A stretch of 64,000 bases of DNA from Escherichia coli (lineage in GTDB: Bacteria; Pseudomonadota; Gammaproteobacteria; Enterobacterales; Enterobacteriaceae), in assembly GCF_003018235.1 (NCBI RefSeq), contig NZ_CP027437.1. One strand, 5' to 3'. A program made the position numbers and the translations under genes. A model generated the notes under the pieces. That model searched no databases, was not told the origin of the DNA, and was given only the letters and a program-made list of their open reading frames with translations. How positions within the stretch are numbered: the first letter of the stretch is position 1; the number at the start of each line of letters is the position of its first letter. Shown here one piece after another: positions 32,998 through 47,562 of this stretch.

Positions 32998-34341
32998 ATG
33001 TTAAACAGTATTTTAGTCATACTCTGCTTGATCGCTGTAAGTGCGTTCTTCTCGATGTCCGAGATCTCGCTTGCCGCCTCACGCAAAATCAAACTTAAAC
33101 TGCTGGCTGATGAAGGCAATATAAATGCCCAACGCGTTCTGAATATGCAGGAAAATCCCGGCATGTTCTTTACCGTGGTCCAAATCGGTCTGAACGCAGT
33201 GGCGATTCTCGGCGGTATCGTCGGTGATGCGGCATTTTCTCCAGCTTTTCACAGCCTGTTCTCCCGCTATATGTCGGCAGAACTCTCTGAGCAACTGAGC
33301 TTTATTCTCTCTTTCTCGTTAGTGACTGGCATGTTTATCCTGTTTGCGGATTTAACCCCGAAACGCATCGGTATGATTGCGCCAGAAGCGGTGGCTTTGC
33401 GTATCATCAACCCGATGCGCTTCTGCCTGTACGTTTGCACCCCGCTGGTGTGGTTCTTCAACGGCCTGGCGAACATAATCTTCCGTATTTTCAAACTGCC
33501 AATGGTACGTAAAGATGACATCACTTCTGATGACATCTACGCGGTAGTGGAAGCCGGTGCGCTGGCGGGCGTGTTACGTAAACAGGAACACGAGCTGATT
33601 GAAAACGTCTTTGAGCTGGAATCCCGTACCGTTCCGTCGTCAATGACACCACGTGAAAACGTGATTTGGTTTGATCTCCACGAAGATGAGCAAAGTCTGA
33701 AGAATAAGGTGGCGGAACATCCGCACTCTAAGTTCCTCGTCTGTAATGAAGATATTGACCACATCATCGGCTATGTCGATTCTAAAGACCTGCTGAACCG
33801 CGTGCTGGCTAACCAAAGCCTGGCACTGAACAGCGGCGTACAAATTCGCAACACGCTGATTGTGCCGGATACGTTAACCCTTTCAGAAGCGTTGGAAAGT
33901 TTTAAAACCGCAGGTGAAGACTTCGCGGTGATCATGAACGAGTACGCGCTGGTAGTGGGGATCATCACCCTCAACGACGTGATGACCACGCTGATGGGCG
34001 ATCTGGTCGGTCAGGGGCTGGAAGAGCAGATTGTCGCCCGTGATGAGAACTCATGGCTGATTGACGGCGGCACCCCGATTGACGACGTCATGCGCGTGCT
34101 GGATATTGACGAGTTCCCGCAGTCGGGCAACTACGAAACCATCGGCGGCTTTATGATGTTTATGCTGCGTAAGATCCCGAAACGCACCGATTCGGTGAAA
34201 TTCGCCGGCTACAAATTTGAAGTGGTGGATATCGATAACTACCGCATCGACCAGCTGCTGGTGACCCGAATCGACAGCAAGGCCACCGCCCTTTCGCCAA
34301 AACTGCCTGACGCTAAAGATAAAGAAGAAAGCGTCGCGTAA
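32998..34341 (+). CDS. ytfL: HlyC/CorC-family inner membrane protein (CNNM/CBS domains)
   Basis: 447-aa ORF; N-terminal DUF21 membrane domain then CBS pair and CorC_HlyC C-terminus. Confidence 0.85.
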   Translation: MLNSILVILCLIAVSAFFSMSEISLAASRKIKLKLLADEGNINAQRVLNMQENPGMFFTVVQIGLNAVAILGGIVGDAAFSPAFHSLFSRYMSAELSEQLSFILSFSLVTGMFILFADLTPKRIGMIAPEAVALRIINPMRFCLYVCTPLVWFFNGLANIIFRIFKLPMVRKDDITSDDIYAVVEAGALAGVLRKQEHELIENVFELESRTVPSSMTPRENVIWFDLHEDEQSLKNKVAEHPHSKFLVCNEDIDHIIGYVDSKDLLNRVLANQSLALNSGVQIRNTLIVPDTLTLSEALESFKTAGEDFAVIMNEYALVVGIITLNDVMTTLMGDLVGQGLEEQIVARDENSWLIDGGTPIDDVMRVLDIDEFPQSGNYETIGGFMMFMLRKIPKRTDSVKFAGYKFEVVDIDNYRIDQLLVTRIDSKATALSPKLPDAKDKEESVA

Positions 34342-34402
34342 CCCCCAGAAACATCAACGGCTCCTGAATCAGGAGCCGTCTTATTACTGCATAGCACTTT
34401 GG

Positions 34403-34609
34403 TTAAGCCATCTCTGTTTGCAGACGCATAACCTGACGGTTAACTTCGGACATCACTGACAAATGCAGCTTATCCTTCACTTTTGGGATAAGAATCTTAC
34501 CCTTATCAAATTCAAAAGCGCCAACGTCCTTGATGTATAACCGTCCACGGAACAGGATCTTTACGTACTTCGCCACCTGAAGTGGGTTGTACCGTTGGAA
34601 AATTTTCAT
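34403..34609 (-). CDS. ytfK: small protein YtfK (DUF1107)
   Basis: 68-aa product from [19 protein letters not shown]; ORF-track start is an upstream extension. Confidence 0.7.
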
Positions 34610-34933
34610 TGTTATCTCCTGCTGAGTATTACGCCTGTGCGGTGCCACAATCGGCCCAACTATTATGAGGCGCAAATTTTAATGCTTAGTGACTATAGAC
34701 TATCCGGGCAATGTTTCCACCGCGTATAACTTTTTTTACCTAAAGGTTACAATTATTCAGAATTATCTTTTTACCGAAGCGCGGTCTTCAGTATAAGCAT
34801 TCATTTTTCATATGATTTGTGCGCTTGACCGCAAACTGGCATCACACTTGCGGGAAATTCGATAAATAGCACATATGATTAAAACTCAGACCCAAGTGGT
34901 CGGATCACCTGCATATCATAAGAAGGAAACACC

Positions 34934-35488
34934 ATGACCCTACGCAAGATTCTGGCACTCACCTGCCTGCTGTTGCCGATGATGGCTTCCGCACATCAGT
35001 TCGAAACCGGTCAGCGAGTGCCGCCGATTGGCATTACCGATCGGGGCGAGTTGGTGCTTGATAAAGATCAGTTTAGCTACAAAACCTGGAACAGCGCGCA
35101 GTTAGTGGGAAAAGTGCGAGTACTGCAACATATTGCTGGTCGCACCTCTGCAAAAGAGAAAAACGCGACGCTGATTGAAGCGATTAAATCAGCAAAGTTA
35201 CCGCACGATCGTTACCAGACCACCACCATTGTTAACACCGACGACGCAATTCCGGGTTCCGGCATGTTTGTGCGCAGCAGTCTGGAAAGTAATAAAAAGC
35301 TTTATCCCTGGTCGCAGTTTATTGTCGATAGCAATGGCGTCGCGCGCGGTGCCTGGCAGCTGGATGAAGAAAGTTCCGCTGTAGTGGTGCTGGATAAAGA
35401 CGGTCGCGTGCAATGGGCCAAAGACGGGGCGCTCACACAGGAAGAGGTGCAGCAAGTGATGGACCTGCTGCAAAAGTTGCTCAAATAA
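34934..35488 (+). CDS. ytfJ: periplasmic protein YtfJ
   Basis: 184-aa ORF with signal peptide. Confidence 0.8.
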   Translation: MTLRKILALTCLLLPMMASAHQFETGQRVPPIGITDRGELVLDKDQFSYKTWNSAQLVGKVRVLQHIAGRTSAKEKNATLIEAIKSAKLPHDRYQTTTIVNTDDAIPGSGMFVRSSLESNKKLYPWSQFIVDSNGVARGAWQLDEESSAVVVLDKDGRVQWAKDGALTQEEVQQVMDLLQKLLK

Positions 35489-35520
35489 TGGCAATAACAT
35501 AAATTCTGCAAAATAATTTT

Positions 35521-35547
35521 CCCCTATCGTTATCTATGGGATAGGGG
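35521..35547. terminator. bidirectional terminator hairpin (CCCCTATC/GATAGGGG) between convergent ytfJ and ytfI
   Basis: 8-bp stem flanked by A/T runs on both sides. Confidence 0.5.
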
Positions 35548-35576
35548 AATTAAGCCTCTGAGTTCTTACGCCGAAC

Positions 35577-36488
35577 TCATACTGGTAACGCTAGTTGCTT
35601 TTTTTTAAACGCCTCAATGGTCGATTTATATTTCTCGCAAATCTTTTCTTCGGTAATATCACTATCTGCGGCCAGATTCGCACTTACTATCGCATCCACT
35701 TGTTCGGCTAATTCGACTTGTTGGCAACCTGCATTAACCAGAAAATTATAAATAAGAGAGTAATCTTCATCCTTCAAAAAAACAGAGGAACCATTACGAA
35801 AACGTTCATCCCCTCCATAGATTTTAAGCGCAAAGCCCAAAGATTCTATGACTATGGCAAAATTATCATCAATTATTTTTTCGTAAATATACCATCCATC
35901 GCATTCTTTAATTCCACCTCCTGGAATTTGGAGGTCAAATTTACCCCGTTTTAATTTGCTTACTATATCCTCCAATAAGGCATAACCTAAAGACACGTCA
36001 CCAATCGCCTGGCGAATATAACCTTTAATCCTTTCCGGTATGTCAGACTGTTTTTTCTGCAGAATATCCCGGGCATACAATCTTCTGTTTTGTTCTAACG
36101 GAAACTCGCGGTTTTTGAAATCCATGAATGAGTTATACTTATTTATTGTTATGGGAATTTCTTCGTATTCAAACCCACTGCCTCGCAATGTCATTATATA
36201 TTCGGCACCGTTATCTTTAATGCTGAAACTGATAAGAAACTTATCCATGGCGTGAACATTTTCATTTTTTGATGAAAGCACCTGATAACTACTTTTATCA
36301 ATCTGAGTTGCGCAACGAAAGAACTCCCGCAAAGTTAACAGGCTATCATAATTCGAAATCCAATCTTTTTTCTTAAATGCATGCTGGATATTGTTAAAAA
36401 AATTGTTTGAATGTGTTTTTGTATGCGATGATTTTACGAATAACTCCACCGCACCAATAAAATTATTGTGTCTGATCCTGGGTAACAT
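35577..36488 (-). CDS. ytfI: uncharacterised protein (AT-rich gene)
   Basis: 303-aa ORF, markedly AT-rich relative to neighbours; no recognisable domain by eye. Confidence 0.65.
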   Translation of the reverse strand: MLPRIRHNNFIGAVELFVKSSHTKTHSNNFFNNIQHAFKKKDWISNYDSLLTLREFFRCATQIDKSSYQVLSSKNENVHAMDKFLISFSIKDNGAEYIMTLRGSGFEYEEIPITINKYNSFMDFKNREFPLEQNRRLYARDILQKKQSDIPERIKGYIRQAIGDVSLGYALLEDIVSKLKRGKFDLQIPGGGIKECDGWYIYEKIIDDNFAIVIESLGFALKIYGGDERFRNGSSVFLKDEDYSLIYNFLVNAGCQQVELAEQVDAIVSANLAADSDITEEKICEKYKSTIEAFKKKQLALPV

Positions 36489-36699
36489 ATGGCTACCTTA
36501 TTTTATTTGGTTATTTTATGTCGCCATTAAATATCTCATTATAGAAGTAAACTATCAAAAAACGCTCATTATTAAAATGTAACTTATTAGCAATTGAATT
36601 TTTGCACTTTAAATACAATCTCTTTTTATTTATAACTTTTTAGGTTGGGAGAAATCAGGATGGCAGAATCAGGAAATACACTGTTTCTGCCATCTGAAT

Positions 36700-37440
36700 T
36701 TAGTAAATAGACACTCTGAATCCCGGATTCAGGAACGACTCGCGCGGAGTGTAATCCAGCGGTTTACCCTGCCAGTCGTGAACGTGCGCTCCGGCAGCTG
36801 CGGCCACAGCATGTCCAGCGGCGGTGTCCCAAATATTCGTTGGTCCGAAGCGCGGGTACAGCTGCGCCTGCCCTTCCGCCACCAGGCAGAATTTCAGCGA
36901 AGAGCCGATGGACGTGGTCTGATGTTCGCCAAGCTGTTGCAGATACTCTTTCAGCTCCGCATCTGCATGGGAACGGCTGATAACCACCAGCGGCGGGCGC
37001 GCATCACGGACCTGAATCTGCTTGCGCACGCCGCACTCTTCTTTCCACGCTTTGCCTTCTGCCGCGCTGTACATTACGTTCATTACCGGCGCATACACCA
37101 CACCTAAAATCGGTTTGCCGTGGTCGATGAGCGCAATGTTAACGGTAAATTCGCCATTACGTTTAATAAACTCTTTAGTACCATCCAGCGGGTCTACCAG
37201 CCAGTAACGCTGCCAGTGCTGACGGACTTCCCAACCGGGAGGATCTTCTTCAGAAAGCACCGGAATATCCGGTGTCAGCGTACGTAAACCGTCCATGATA
37301 ACGGTGTGTGCGGCAATATCCGCTGCCGTTACCGGAGAATTGTCCGCTTTGCTGACGACGTCCATCGGTTTCGTCCCGTCGTAGACCTGCATAATGGCAT
37401 CGCCTGCATTCCGTGCAAGCTGGCATACTTGATCTAACAT
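36700..37440 (-). CDS. cysQ: 3'(2'),5'-bisphosphate nucleotidase
   Basis: 246-aa ORF; inositol monophosphatase family motifs DPLDGT and WDTAAG. Confidence 0.9.
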
Positions 37441-37629
37441 TTCTCCACCTCGTCTCTGTGAGCGGTGTTAACTTATTGTTTTACTTATACCCTATCGTTA
37501 ATGAATGCGCCAACTGTGATAGTGTCATCATTTTCAAAGCGTAAAATTGTGGCATTCTTCACTGTTCTATAAGTAAGACGTTTATTCTCTCTTTTCTTTC
37601 GTATTCCCGATGATAAAAGGATGTCCCTG

Positions 37630-39573
37630 ATGATTAAGTTTAGCGCAACGCTCCTGGCCACGCTGATTGCCGCCAGTGTGAATGCAGCGACGGTCGATCT
37701 GCGTATCATGGAAACCACTGATCTGCATAGCAACATGATGGATTTCGATTATTACAAAGACACCGCCACGGAAAAATTCGGACTGGTACGTACGGCAAGC
37801 CTGATTAACGATGCCCGCAATGAAGTGAAAAACAGCGTACTGGTGGATAACGGCGATTTGATTCAGGGGAGTCCGCTTGCAGATTACATGTCGGCGAAAG
37901 GTTTAAAAGCAGGCGATATTCATCCGGTCTATAAGGCATTAAATACGCTGGACTATACCGTCGGCACGCTTGGCAACCACGAGTTTAACTACGGTCTGGA
38001 TTACCTGAAAAATGCGCTGGCGGGAGCGAAATTCCCTTATGTAAATGCCAACGTCATTGACGCCAGAACCAAACAGCCAATGTTTACACCGTATTTAATT
38101 AAAGACACCGAAGTGGTCGATAAAGACGGAAAAAAACAGACGCTGAAGATTGGCTATATTGGCGTCGTGCCGCCGCAAATCATGGGCTGGGATAAAGCTA
38201 ATTTATCCGGGAAAGTGACGGTGAATGATATTACCGAAACCGTGCGCAAATACGTGCCTGAAATGCGCGAGAAAGGTGCCGATGTCGTTGTCGTTCTGGC
38301 GCATTCCGGGCTGTCTGCCGATCCGTATAAAGTGATGGCGGAAAACTCAGTTTATTACCTCAGTGAAATTCCGGGCGTTAACGCCATTATGTTTGGCCAT
38401 GCTCACGCCGTTTTCCCAGGTAAAGATTTTGCTGATATCGAAGGGGCTGATATCGCGAAAGGCACGCTGAATGGTGTTCCGGCGGTAATGCCAGGCATGT
38501 GGGGCGATCATCTTGGTGTGGTCGACTTACAACTCAGTAATGACAGCGGTAAATGGCAGGTGACGCAGGCGAAAGCGGAAGCAAGACCGATTTACGACAT
38601 CGCTAATAAAAAATCCCTCGCGGCGGAAGACAGCAAGCTGGTAGAAACACTCAAAGCCGATCACGATGCCACACGCCAGTTCGTCAGCAAGCCAATCGGT
38701 AAATCCGCCGACAATATGTATAGCTATCTGGCGCTAGTGCAAGACGATCCGACCGTGCAGGTAGTGAACAACGCGCAAAAAGCATATGTCGAGCATTACA
38801 TTCAGGGCGATCCGGATCTGGCAAAACTGCCGGTGCTTTCAGCTGCCGCACCGTTTAAAGTTGGTGGTCGCAAAAATGACCCGGCAAGCTATGTGGAGGT
38901 GGAAAAAGGCCAGTTGACCTTCCGTAATGCCGCCGATCTTTATCTCTACCCCAATACGCTGATTGTGGTGAAAGCCAGCGGTAAAGAGGTGAAAGAGTGG
39001 CTGGAGTGCTCCGCCGGACAGTTTAACCAGATTGATCCTAACAGCACGAAACCACAGTCACTCATCAACTGGGATGGTTTCCGCACCTATAACTTTGATG
39101 TTATTGATGGTGTGAATTATCAGATTGATGTTACCCAACCCGCCCGTTATGACGGCGAGTGCCAGATGATTAATGCCAATGCGGAAAGGATTAAGAACCT
39201 GACCTTTAATGGCAAACCGATTGATCCGAACGCCATGTTCCTCGTTGCCACCAATAACTATCGCGCTTACGGCGGCAAATTTGCCGGTACGGGCGACAGC
39301 CATATCGCTTTTGCTTCACCGGATGAGAACCGCTCGGTGCTGGCAGCGTGGATTGCTGATGAGTCGAAACGTGCGGGGGAAATTCACCCGGCGGCAGATA
39401 ACAACTGGCGTTTAGCACCAATAGCTGGCGATAAGAAACTGGATATCCGTTTCGAAACCTCTCCATCAGATAAAGCCGCGGCGTTTATTAAAGAGAAAGG
39501 GCAATATCCGATGAATAAAGTCGCGACCGATGATATCGGGTTTGCGATTTATCAGGTGGATTTGAGTAAGTAA
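37630..39573 (+). CDS. cpdB: 2',3'-cyclic-nucleotide 2'-phosphodiesterase / 3'-nucleotidase
   Basis: 647-aa product from [10 protein letters not shown] with signal peptide; metallophosphatase GNHEF motif. Confidence 0.9.
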
Positions 39574-46767: not shown

Positions 46768-47562
46768 ATGACATTACCAACAACTATTTATTCATTTCCT
46801 GCATATTCACCCCGTTTTTCGTCCACCGACAAACCAGTAAAATTAAAATTTCATCAATACGCACGCGCTACATTACTTTCAAATCGTGGAAGAGACCATA
46901 ATTGCGATGGCAGACATACTGTTGAGATCCACAAACTAGATCTCTCAGACTGGCAAGCATTCAATAAGTTAGCGACGAGGTGTAATACTTACGATGGAAT
47001 AACAATGAATGGTGATAATTCTTTTGGATGGAACCATGAAGCTACATTAGATAATATTCACGCCCAGAAATACAATAAAGCTTACGCGGGTGCGAGGTTA
47101 ACCGCAGAACTGAAATATTTATTGCAAGATGTCGAATCCTTCGAACCCAACAGTAAATACACAATACACGAGGTTGTTTTGGGTCCAGGTTATGGTACTC
47201 CAGACTATACCGGCCAAACGATAGGATACGTTGTAACCCTTCCTGCCCAAATGCCTAATTGCTGGTCATCTGAACTACCAACAATCGATCTTTATATCGA
47301 CCAACTTCGCACTGTTACAGGCGTTTCTAATGCCCTCGGATTCATCATTGCTGCATTGCTAAACGCGTATTCTGATTTACCCCATGATTTGAAAATTGGT
47401 CTGCGTTCCTTATCAAGTTCAGCAGCAATCTACTCGGGTTTGGGTTTCGAACGAGTGCCACAGGACCGAGACATAAGGTGCGATCATATGCATCTAACGC
47501 CAGCAAACCATCCTGAATTATGGACACAGGAGAATGGTGAATGGATCTACTTGCGAAACTAA
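46768..47562 (+). CDS. yjfZ: uncharacterised protein (AT-rich gene)
   Basis: 264-aa ORF in an AT-rich block; no recognisable domain by eye. Confidence 0.7.
   Translation: MTLPTTIYSFPAYSPRFSSTDKPVKLKFHQYARATLLSNRGRDHNCDGRHTVEIHKLDLSDWQAFNKLATRCNTYDGITMNGDNSFGWNHEATLDNIHAQKYNKAYAGARLTAELKYLLQDVESFEPNSKYTIHEVVLGPGYGTPDYTGQTIGYVVTLPAQMPNCWSSELPTIDLYIDQLRTVTGVSNALGFIIAALLNAYSDLPHDLKIGLRSLSSSAAIYSGLGFERVPQDRDIRCDHMHLTPANHPELWTQENGEWIYLRN

Follow-up and report, generated by a model that had tools for sequence, protein, structure and literature searches.

The window (the whole 64,000-nucleotide stretch of Escherichia coli DNA analysed here) carries the gene order of the E. coli paeA(ytfL)-ytfK-ytfJ-ytfI-cysQ-cpdB region. 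Between the stop codon of ytfJ (34934..35488, plus strand; 184 aa, YtfJ_HI0045 family) and that of cysQ (36700..37440, minus strand; 3'(2'),5'-bisphosphate nucleotidase, intact whether the site is occupied or empty) lies an AT-rich inserted islet of ~1.2 kb (~35489..36699). Its boundaries come from alignments of the junctions with those of empty-site genomes and are accurate to a few bases. The only ORF inside the islet is ytfI (35577..36488, minus strand, 303 aa), and its reading frame is intact in alleles down to 69% amino acid identity. The gene name given by a first-pass annotation, which had been made from the sequence alone, is right: the K-12 orthologue is annotated as ytfI and its product as YtfI. 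The window allele ends at a TGA, and the K-12 allele continues for 9 residues (312 aa). YtfI has a calculated mass of ~34.9 kDa, a pI of 6.6 and no hydrophobic segment.

The region upstream of ytfI (36489..36699, minus strand, ~27% GC) is better conserved between alleles than the coding sequence itself. Mean column identity is 94% across alleles whose coding sequences are 78–97% identical, and among the divergent alleles the upstream region is 87–89% identical versus 78–86% for the coding sequence. A consensus scan combined with positional conservation picked out a candidate sigma-70 promoter, TTGATA-N17-GATATT with a TG extension (36530..36558, minus strand). On its scan score alone the site does not exceed what shuffled sequence gives; all ytfI alleles share the same -35 hexamer, and we infer that the site may act as the ytfI promoter. 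Direct reading of the sequence identifies a Shine-Dalgarno-like AAGGTAG (36493..36499, minus strand) 4 nt 5' of the ATG, the AGGT core of which is invariant in the allele alignment.

Three hairpins are found in the islet. The strongest (inverted repeat I1, 36652..36701; -21.4 kcal/mol, z = -5.6) is located directly past the cysQ stop codon, is part of the insert and has a stem that is identical in all alleles; it is likely to be a cysQ terminator or insulator. A second hairpin (inverted repeat I15, 35519..35549; z = -3.3 to -3.4) has a perfect 10-bp stem, TTCCCCTATC...GATAGGGGAA, and is placed between the convergent ytfJ and ytfI. As AAAAUUAUUUUG comes next on the minus strand, this hairpin is likely to be the ytfI terminator and is possibly bidirectional. 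The third, a small hairpin (GAGTTC...GAACTC, 35559..35579) detected by fold analysis, spans the ytfI stop codon. Together, the hairpins of the insert would supply terminators or insulators for the three genes that now converge there. An Rfam scan of 34300–37700 gave no RNA family inside the islet.

The first-pass annotation had described ytfI as a strongly AT-rich gene behind an AT-rich upstream region, both far richer in AT than the flanking genes, with a codon usage rich in AAA, AAT and ATT, and calculation bears this out on every point. The coding sequence has a GC content of 0.363 and a GC3 of 0.349, versus 0.525±0.036 and 0.585±0.070 for the long ORFs of the window (whole-window GC 0.513); this is ~4.4 and ~3.4 standard deviations under the respective means and the lowest value among 46 ORFs. 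In 200-bp windows GC is 0.34–0.40 along ytfI, 0.27–0.29 over 36400–36699 and 0.595–0.61 inside cysQ. The 211 bp 5' of ytfI are ~27% GC, and the whole segment between ytfJ and cysQ is 0.34. AAA makes up 6.9% of ytfI codons versus 3.7% in the other ORFs of the window, AAT 4.3% versus 1.6% and ATT 5.6% versus 2.9%; ATA rises from 0.3% to 3.0% and CTG drops from 5.5% to 1.3%. A CAI-like index, calculated with the window's other ORFs as the reference set, is 0.571 for ytfI versus 0.678±0.055 and is the second lowest of the 46. Both GC content and codon usage thus lie far beyond the local range. All ytfI alleles are still 34–36% GC, and there is no drift towards the genome average although alleles are separated by dS values of ~0.7.

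The ytfI segment is present in 1603–1604 of 5,426 complete E. coli genomes (~30%, in a set that over-represents K-12 derivatives and O157:H7), and occupies the identical junction in K-12, O157:H7, O55:H7 and many other lineages. In the remaining ~70% the convergent ytfJ and cysQ share 11 bp at their stop codons, such that ytfJ encodes 185 aa and its last 11 nt overlap cysQ. The junction sequences of these E. coli empty sites are by themselves compatible with both the ancestral state and a secondary deletion. One genome per species was scanned for YtfJ and the best 80 loci were inspected. Nearly all of the 70-odd non-Escherichia loci among these 80 (Citrobacter, Salmonella, Klebsiella, Raoultella, Enterobacter, Kluyvera, Kosakonia, Trabulsiella and others) have a ytfJ–cysQ gap of ~0–30 bp, with the two genes abutting or overlapping, and none of them has a ytfI homologue at this position; family-wide orthologues with conserved synteny, which would have spoken against the foreign origin proposed by the first-pass annotation, are absent from the sampled loci. 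The empty loci have a common junction architecture, ...CTGCTGCAyAArYTrCTCArTAAATAG. Because nearly all sampled loci from other genera abut or overlap and lack a ytfI homologue, the empty, overlapping arrangement of ytfJ and cysQ is, judged by these alignments, ancestral and ytfI a derived insertion confined to Escherichia.

One could argue instead that ytfI dates back to an enterobacterial ancestor, was lost outside some Escherichia and is intrinsically AT-rich, with no foreign mark to explain. The synonymous divergence of ytfI does match that of its flanks, as if the gene had been inherited vertically within Escherichia (see below). Given, however, that nearly all of the sampled non-Escherichia genera are empty with the same 21-nt junction architecture, this model needs dozens of identical scarless deletions, and no homologue is found elsewhere, either in the outgroup genomes or among 1.84 billion representative proteins; we consider it effectively refuted. 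Horizontal acquisition, as suggested in the first-pass annotation, is supported by the outlying composition, the empty site in the 70-odd outgroup loci and the lack of a homologue elsewhere. Within Escherichia, a scarless empty site is present in three species-level lineages (E. whittamii, sp. E1V33 and strain E69) and also in a closer relative, Escherichia sp. MOD1-EC7003. As ytfI is found in one lineage at the level of a cryptic clade and is absent from three others, its history must include a polymorphism that persisted over a long time, scarless loss on several occasions, or homologous recombination that exchanged the locus in its entirety.

The ytfJ|cysQ junction has received other cargo. 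In E. albertii it contains an unrelated insert that encodes a pentapeptide-repeat protein, in Citrobacter youngae a membrane protein together with a radical-SAM/SPASM enzyme, and in Kluyvera an S11 peptidase. We rejected the possibility that YtfI is homologous to the pentapeptide-repeat protein of E. albertii (E = 0.6). The junction resembles integration hotspots between convergent core genes in that it takes unrelated cargo in several taxa. The inserts are, however, tiny, with one or two genes, and lack an integrase, a tRNA, recognisable att sites or inverted-repeat ends, so they fit neither classic genomic islands nor IS/MITE elements. In the islet itself, no transposase or integrase was found (ytfI, its only ORF, has no family match) and there is no tRNA at the insert. 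A search of repeats and junctions gave neither convincing terminal repeats nor a clear target-site duplication at the islet ends: end-to-end inverted repeats are weak (72–75% over 16–18 nt), and AATAAATAG may be duplicated in degenerate form at the junctions, in a way not distinguishable from chance. Searches of phage collections and true plasmids gave no ytfI and hence no donor; four matches to records labelled 'plasmid' are chromosome-sized or engineered E. coli records.

The same junction carries divergent ytfI alleles in divergent Escherichia genomes. The P0008-type allele is 78% identical to the window protein, with flanking DNA at 94–96%, and the P0010-type allele is 69% identical, with flanks at 89–93%, a distance typical of cryptic clades or species. 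We calculated dS and dN/dS (Nei-Gojobori) between the window allele and the K-12, P0008-type and P0010-type genomes. For ytfI, dS is 0.087, 0.36 and 0.68 respectively (dN/dS 0.23–0.37). In the same order, the values are 0.092, 0.21 and 0.63 for cysQ (dN/dS 0.01–0.02) and 0.057, 0.11 and 0.59 for ytfJ (dN/dS 0.02–0.09); for cpdB they are 0.28 and 0.33 in the P0008-type and P0010-type comparisons (dN/dS 0.03), with none available for K-12. Overall, flank dS spans 0.06–0.09, 0.11–0.28 and 0.33–0.63 in the three genome pairs. By this measure the insert has co-diverged with its flanks and is as old as the split of the lineages that carry it: ytfI dS tracks flank dS out to lineages that are ~90% identical in DNA, which argues for an ancient rather than a recent acquisition.

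These values bear directly on the idea that ytfI is a recent, strain-specific insertion, in keeping with the label 'K-12-specific segment' in the literature. Its absence from strains SE11 and SE15 (PMC4720273) and from most E. coli genomes, together with a GC content still far under the genome average, could be read in this way. However, the same junction is occupied in K-12, O157:H7, O55:H7 and many further lineages, and the gene is present where flanks are just 89–96% identical with its dS in step with theirs. A recent insertion is thus most improbable and already contradicted by the data.

The pattern of substitution further indicates that the old insert encodes a protein under constraint. 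The deficit of nonsynonymous relative to synonymous differences in ytfI is highly significant (Fisher P = 2.5e-14), and dN/dS reaches 0.45 at most once a mosaic allele found within E. coli (P0003) is added. This allele is 87% identical to the window in protein, with flanks at 97–99%; its ytfI is 92.5% identical in nucleotides, with the differences clustered in aa 141–300. The frame is intact (303–312 aa) in alleles that are 0.7–0.86 apart in dS, and the motif KNREFPLxQNxRLYA is invariant. Constraint is uneven: pN/pS is ~0.1–0.3 in aa 1–140 and near 1 in the fast-evolving aa 141–240, and the protein as a whole evolves 10–20 times faster than its neighbours. On these comparisons ytfI is a selected protein-coding gene under purifying selection and not silent junk.

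A different interpretation of the same ORF is that it is non-functional, a spurious frame or a decaying remnant in AT-rich junk that is tolerated as H-NS-quieted DNA. Several observations point that way: ~70% of E. coli lack ytfI with no visible consequence, an IS1 element breaks the gene in H1, the window's closest relative, truncated forms are common in the database (P0007, 251 aa and 729 members; P0009; P0018), the predicted structure reaches a pLDDT of just 35–40, and pN approximates pS in aa 141–240. A spurious or decaying frame would not, however, be expected to stay open at 303–312 aa over a dS of 0.7–0.86, with a dN/dS of 0.23–0.45 (P = 2.5e-14), a pN/pS of ~0.1–0.3 in its N-terminal half and conservation of both the promoter region and the Shine-Dalgarno sequence. 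We regard this interpretation as very unlikely and retain that of a selected gene.

The first-pass annotation had called the product an orphan with no domain recognisable by eye, and systematic searches agree. Sequence searches with YtfI against Pfam, NCBIfam and the PDB were all empty. Neither 5.8 billion clustered proteins, searched by word index, nor 1.84 billion representatives, searched exhaustively with HMMER, contained a homologue beyond Escherichia/Shigella YtfI and its fragments; all credible matches are from these two genera, with at least 69% identity. Two matches to repeat proteins (E ~1e-5 to 1e-4) were discarded as low-complexity. AlphaFold2 gave no confident fold (pLDDT 35.1 for full-length YtfI and 39.5 for aa 120–303), a Foldseek search of the PDB with this poor model returned nothing at E <= 0.001 and its top matches are meaningless, and comparison of the N- and C-terminal halves showed no internal duplication. 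A LisH motif was also rejected: the highest score of any allele is 20.0 bits (aa 244–257), under the Pfam gathering threshold of 21.6, and the window allele has no match. YtfI thus resembles the taxonomically restricted ORFan y-genes of E. coli K-12, being likewise without a homologue outside the genus, a Pfam or NCBIfam domain, a confidently predicted structure or an assigned function, and AT-rich in codon usage. It differs from many ORFans in the clear selection on its protein and in a regulatory region that is better conserved than the coding sequence.

Could YtfI be a conflict protein, such as a toxin, an effector or a stand-alone factor for phage defence or abortive infection, whose presence/absence polymorphism is kept by fluctuating selection? 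The gene is patchy, accessory and H-NS-bound, its product is a taxonomically restricted orphan with a localised fast-evolving region (aa 141–240, pN ~ pS), and the P0003 allele is a mosaic within E. coli (ytfI 92.5% identical in nucleotides versus 98–99% for the flanks). A marginal match to a Cas6b/RAMP model of PADLOC (aa 111–152 against model positions 83–124 of 240) covers 42 aa, includes the KNREFPLxQNxRLYA motif and is found in 7 of 8 alleles with a best E of 2.6e-4. This match is nevertheless short (16.5 bits) and stands outside any CRISPR or cas context, and it was rejected, as was a marginal short match at aa 82–138 to phrog_3250 (PHROGs), a family with no assigned function; because the alleles are near-identical, the recurrence of both matches across them is not independent support, and we treat them as compositional or due to chance. 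None of 5,027 PADLOC defence models gave a credible match. In addition, ytfI lies outside a defence island among housekeeping neighbours, has no partner gene and, phrog_3250 apart, has no phage homologue. We regard a conflict function of this kind as rather unlikely.

A broader proposal has two separate parts: that the presence or absence of ytfI is a long-lived, possibly trans-specific polymorphism under fluctuating or balancing selection, with aa 141–240 engaged in molecular conflict, and that small AT-rich genes are preferentially captured at the overlapping-stop ytfJ|cysQ junction, by a mechanism that needs neither an integrase nor repeats. We think this unlikely. As to function, our best guess, made with low confidence, is that YtfI is an accessory factor, conditionally expressed and linked to a niche or a conflict, and not a core metabolic protein.

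The link between this locus and H-NS has been described before. Higashi et al. (2016, PLoS Genet, PMC4720273, S10 Fig) list ytfI as an 'H-NS-bound specific segment' of K-12 that arose by insertion and is absent from SE11 and SE15. In their K-12 ChAP-seq data the signal spreads over cpdB, cysQ, ytfJ and ytfK, and it is missing in SE11 and SE15, which lack ytfI, so that binding depends on the insert (PMC4720273). Among the xenogeneic-silencing targets of H-NS in E. coli and Salmonella, the gene studied here is therefore the same gene at the same locus as the Higashi example. It shares with the H-NS targets of that work AT-richness, absence from the syntenic site in relatives, spreading of H-NS and an elevated dN, the last of which, relative to core genes, is the general thesis put forward for H-NS-bound genes (PMC4720273). 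A scan for the 10-bp high-affinity H-NS motif gave no enrichment (61 matches versus 64 expected) and speaks neither for nor against binding.

Taken together, we consider it highly probable that ytfI is an old, horizontally acquired islet of ~1.2 kb, bound by H-NS in one published K-12 dataset and encoding a selected, Escherichia-only protein. In our model, an early Escherichia lineage would have received the islet exactly where the stop codons of the convergent ytfJ and cysQ had overlapped, and the islet would then have been inherited together with its flanks, to become the accessory locus now carried by ~30% of complete E. coli genomes. With 27–36% GC in a 51% GC context, the AT-rich DNA of the islet would be a substrate for binding by H-NS, a xenogeneic silencer, which, as the K-12 ChAP-seq signal suggests, coats the insert, spreads to neighbouring genes and presumably keeps ytfI repressed under standard conditions. 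The insert appears to bring its own conserved promoter region, and its hairpins now separate, and probably terminate, ytfJ, ytfI and cysQ. The predicted product is a soluble protein of ~35 kDa, restricted to Escherichia/Shigella and constrained in its N-terminal half.

Both the foreign origin of ytfI and its binding by H-NS are published (PMC4720273), and in this respect the first-pass annotation was correct but not new. Since this very gene had been reported as a case of xenogeneic silencing, from which nothing differs here in kind, the finding matters little alone. Our additions are small steps: overlapping stops as the ancestral state of the junction, an estimate of how old the insert is, purifying selection on the protein with a fast aa 141–240 region, a regulatory region that is better conserved than its gene, and the independent use of the junction by the cargo of E. 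albertii, C. youngae and Kluyvera. The locus does provide a clean teaching case, in which a single orphan gene at the overlapping stops of two core genes, with what seem to be its own promoter and hairpins, recruits H-NS to the neighbouring genes as well and has remained AT-rich and under selection while the Escherichia lineages diverged. If a function of YtfI were found, there would be one fewer uncharacterised gene in E. coli, and the retention of the gene by ~30% of strains might be explained.

The papers examined that name ytfI assign it no function and contain no expression data; two observations touch on the gene. It is among the strongest but disputed σ32 ChIP-chip sites (PMC3870955, PMC2996942), in a list on which the yfj cluster, ygcI, yjhI and further uncharacterised y-genes also stand; these signals may reflect promiscuous binding of RNA polymerase or σ, or a ChIP artefact. 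In a screen of the ASKA library, over-expression of ytfI gave tolerance to HOCl (PMC8228696).

The ytfI allele of the window ends in TGA (35577-35579) at the position where K-12 (L003) has TTA; this substitution terminates the window's YtfI at ...LALPV, giving a protein of 303 aa, whereas the K-12 protein continues for a further LVRRKNSET to a total of 312 aa. YtfI alleles of 303, 306, 307 and 312 aa were found. At this locus the nearest relative of the window is NZ_AP043641.1 (4771812-4773990, matches H1/H31, 99.8-99.9% identity), in which an IS1A element lies within ytfI, leaving two 'hypothetical proteins'. A further E. coli allele, P0003 (L089:3001-3912), is mosaic, with 92.5% identity to the window in ytfI versus 97-99% in the flanks. 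Its substitutions are concentrated in amino acids 141-300 of YtfI, and pN is equal to or greater than pS across residues 141-220. This pattern suggests intragenic recombination or local diversification.

The ytfJ-cysQ junction carries other cargo in related species. Escherichia albertii NBRC 107761 has an AT-rich insert of 1.5 kb (L014:4556-6059, GC 0.33), distinct from that of ytfI. Its gene lies on the ytfJ strand and specifies a pentapeptide-repeat protein of 385 aa, which matches PF00805 in Pfam at E = 7.6e-12. Kinship of this protein with YtfI was considered and rejected; the two are unrelated (BLASTP E = 0.6). The 2.1 kb insert of Citrobacter youngae ATCC 29220 (L042:4559-6678) contains a gene for a predicted membrane protein of 298 aa whose tail is rich in Ser, Gly and Cys (…SSCGGSSCGGSSCSGSSCGGSGCGGCGGD); after it comes a gene for a radical-SAM/SPASM enzyme, and these two could form a small peptide-maturation pair. 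Kluyvera genomosp. 1 and K. cryocrescens (L066 and L069:4544-5460) share an insert of 0.9 kb with a normal GC content (0.55), whose product resembles S11 D-Ala-D-Ala carboxypeptidases, with a match to PF00768 at E = 1.5e-19.

The cysQ-proximal hairpin arm of the ytfI insert (TCAGGATGGCAGAATCAGGAA, 36655-36675) and the palindromic CTGAATCCCGGATTCAGGAA located within the 3' end of cysQ (36715-36735) share 71% identity. The likeness may be a coincidence or a leftover from rebuilding of the junction. Directly upstream of cysQ, in the cpdB-cysQ intergenic region and on the cysQ strand, there is a full-length match to the Rfam sRNA ES239 (37507-37629, minus strand; 151.9 bits, E = 1e-30).

The window contains a second AT-rich outlier ORF, encoding a DUF2686 protein (46768-47562, plus strand; PF10887, E = 5e-152). 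With a GC content of 0.419, a GC3 of 0.355 and a CAI-like value of 0.474, the minimum among the 46 window ORFs, it is probably a further accessory gene of the H-NS type. The ytfK-ytfJ intergenic region (34600-34900) is AT-rich as well (GC 0.39-0.40) and falls inside a K-12 zone with published H-NS coverage (PMC4720273).
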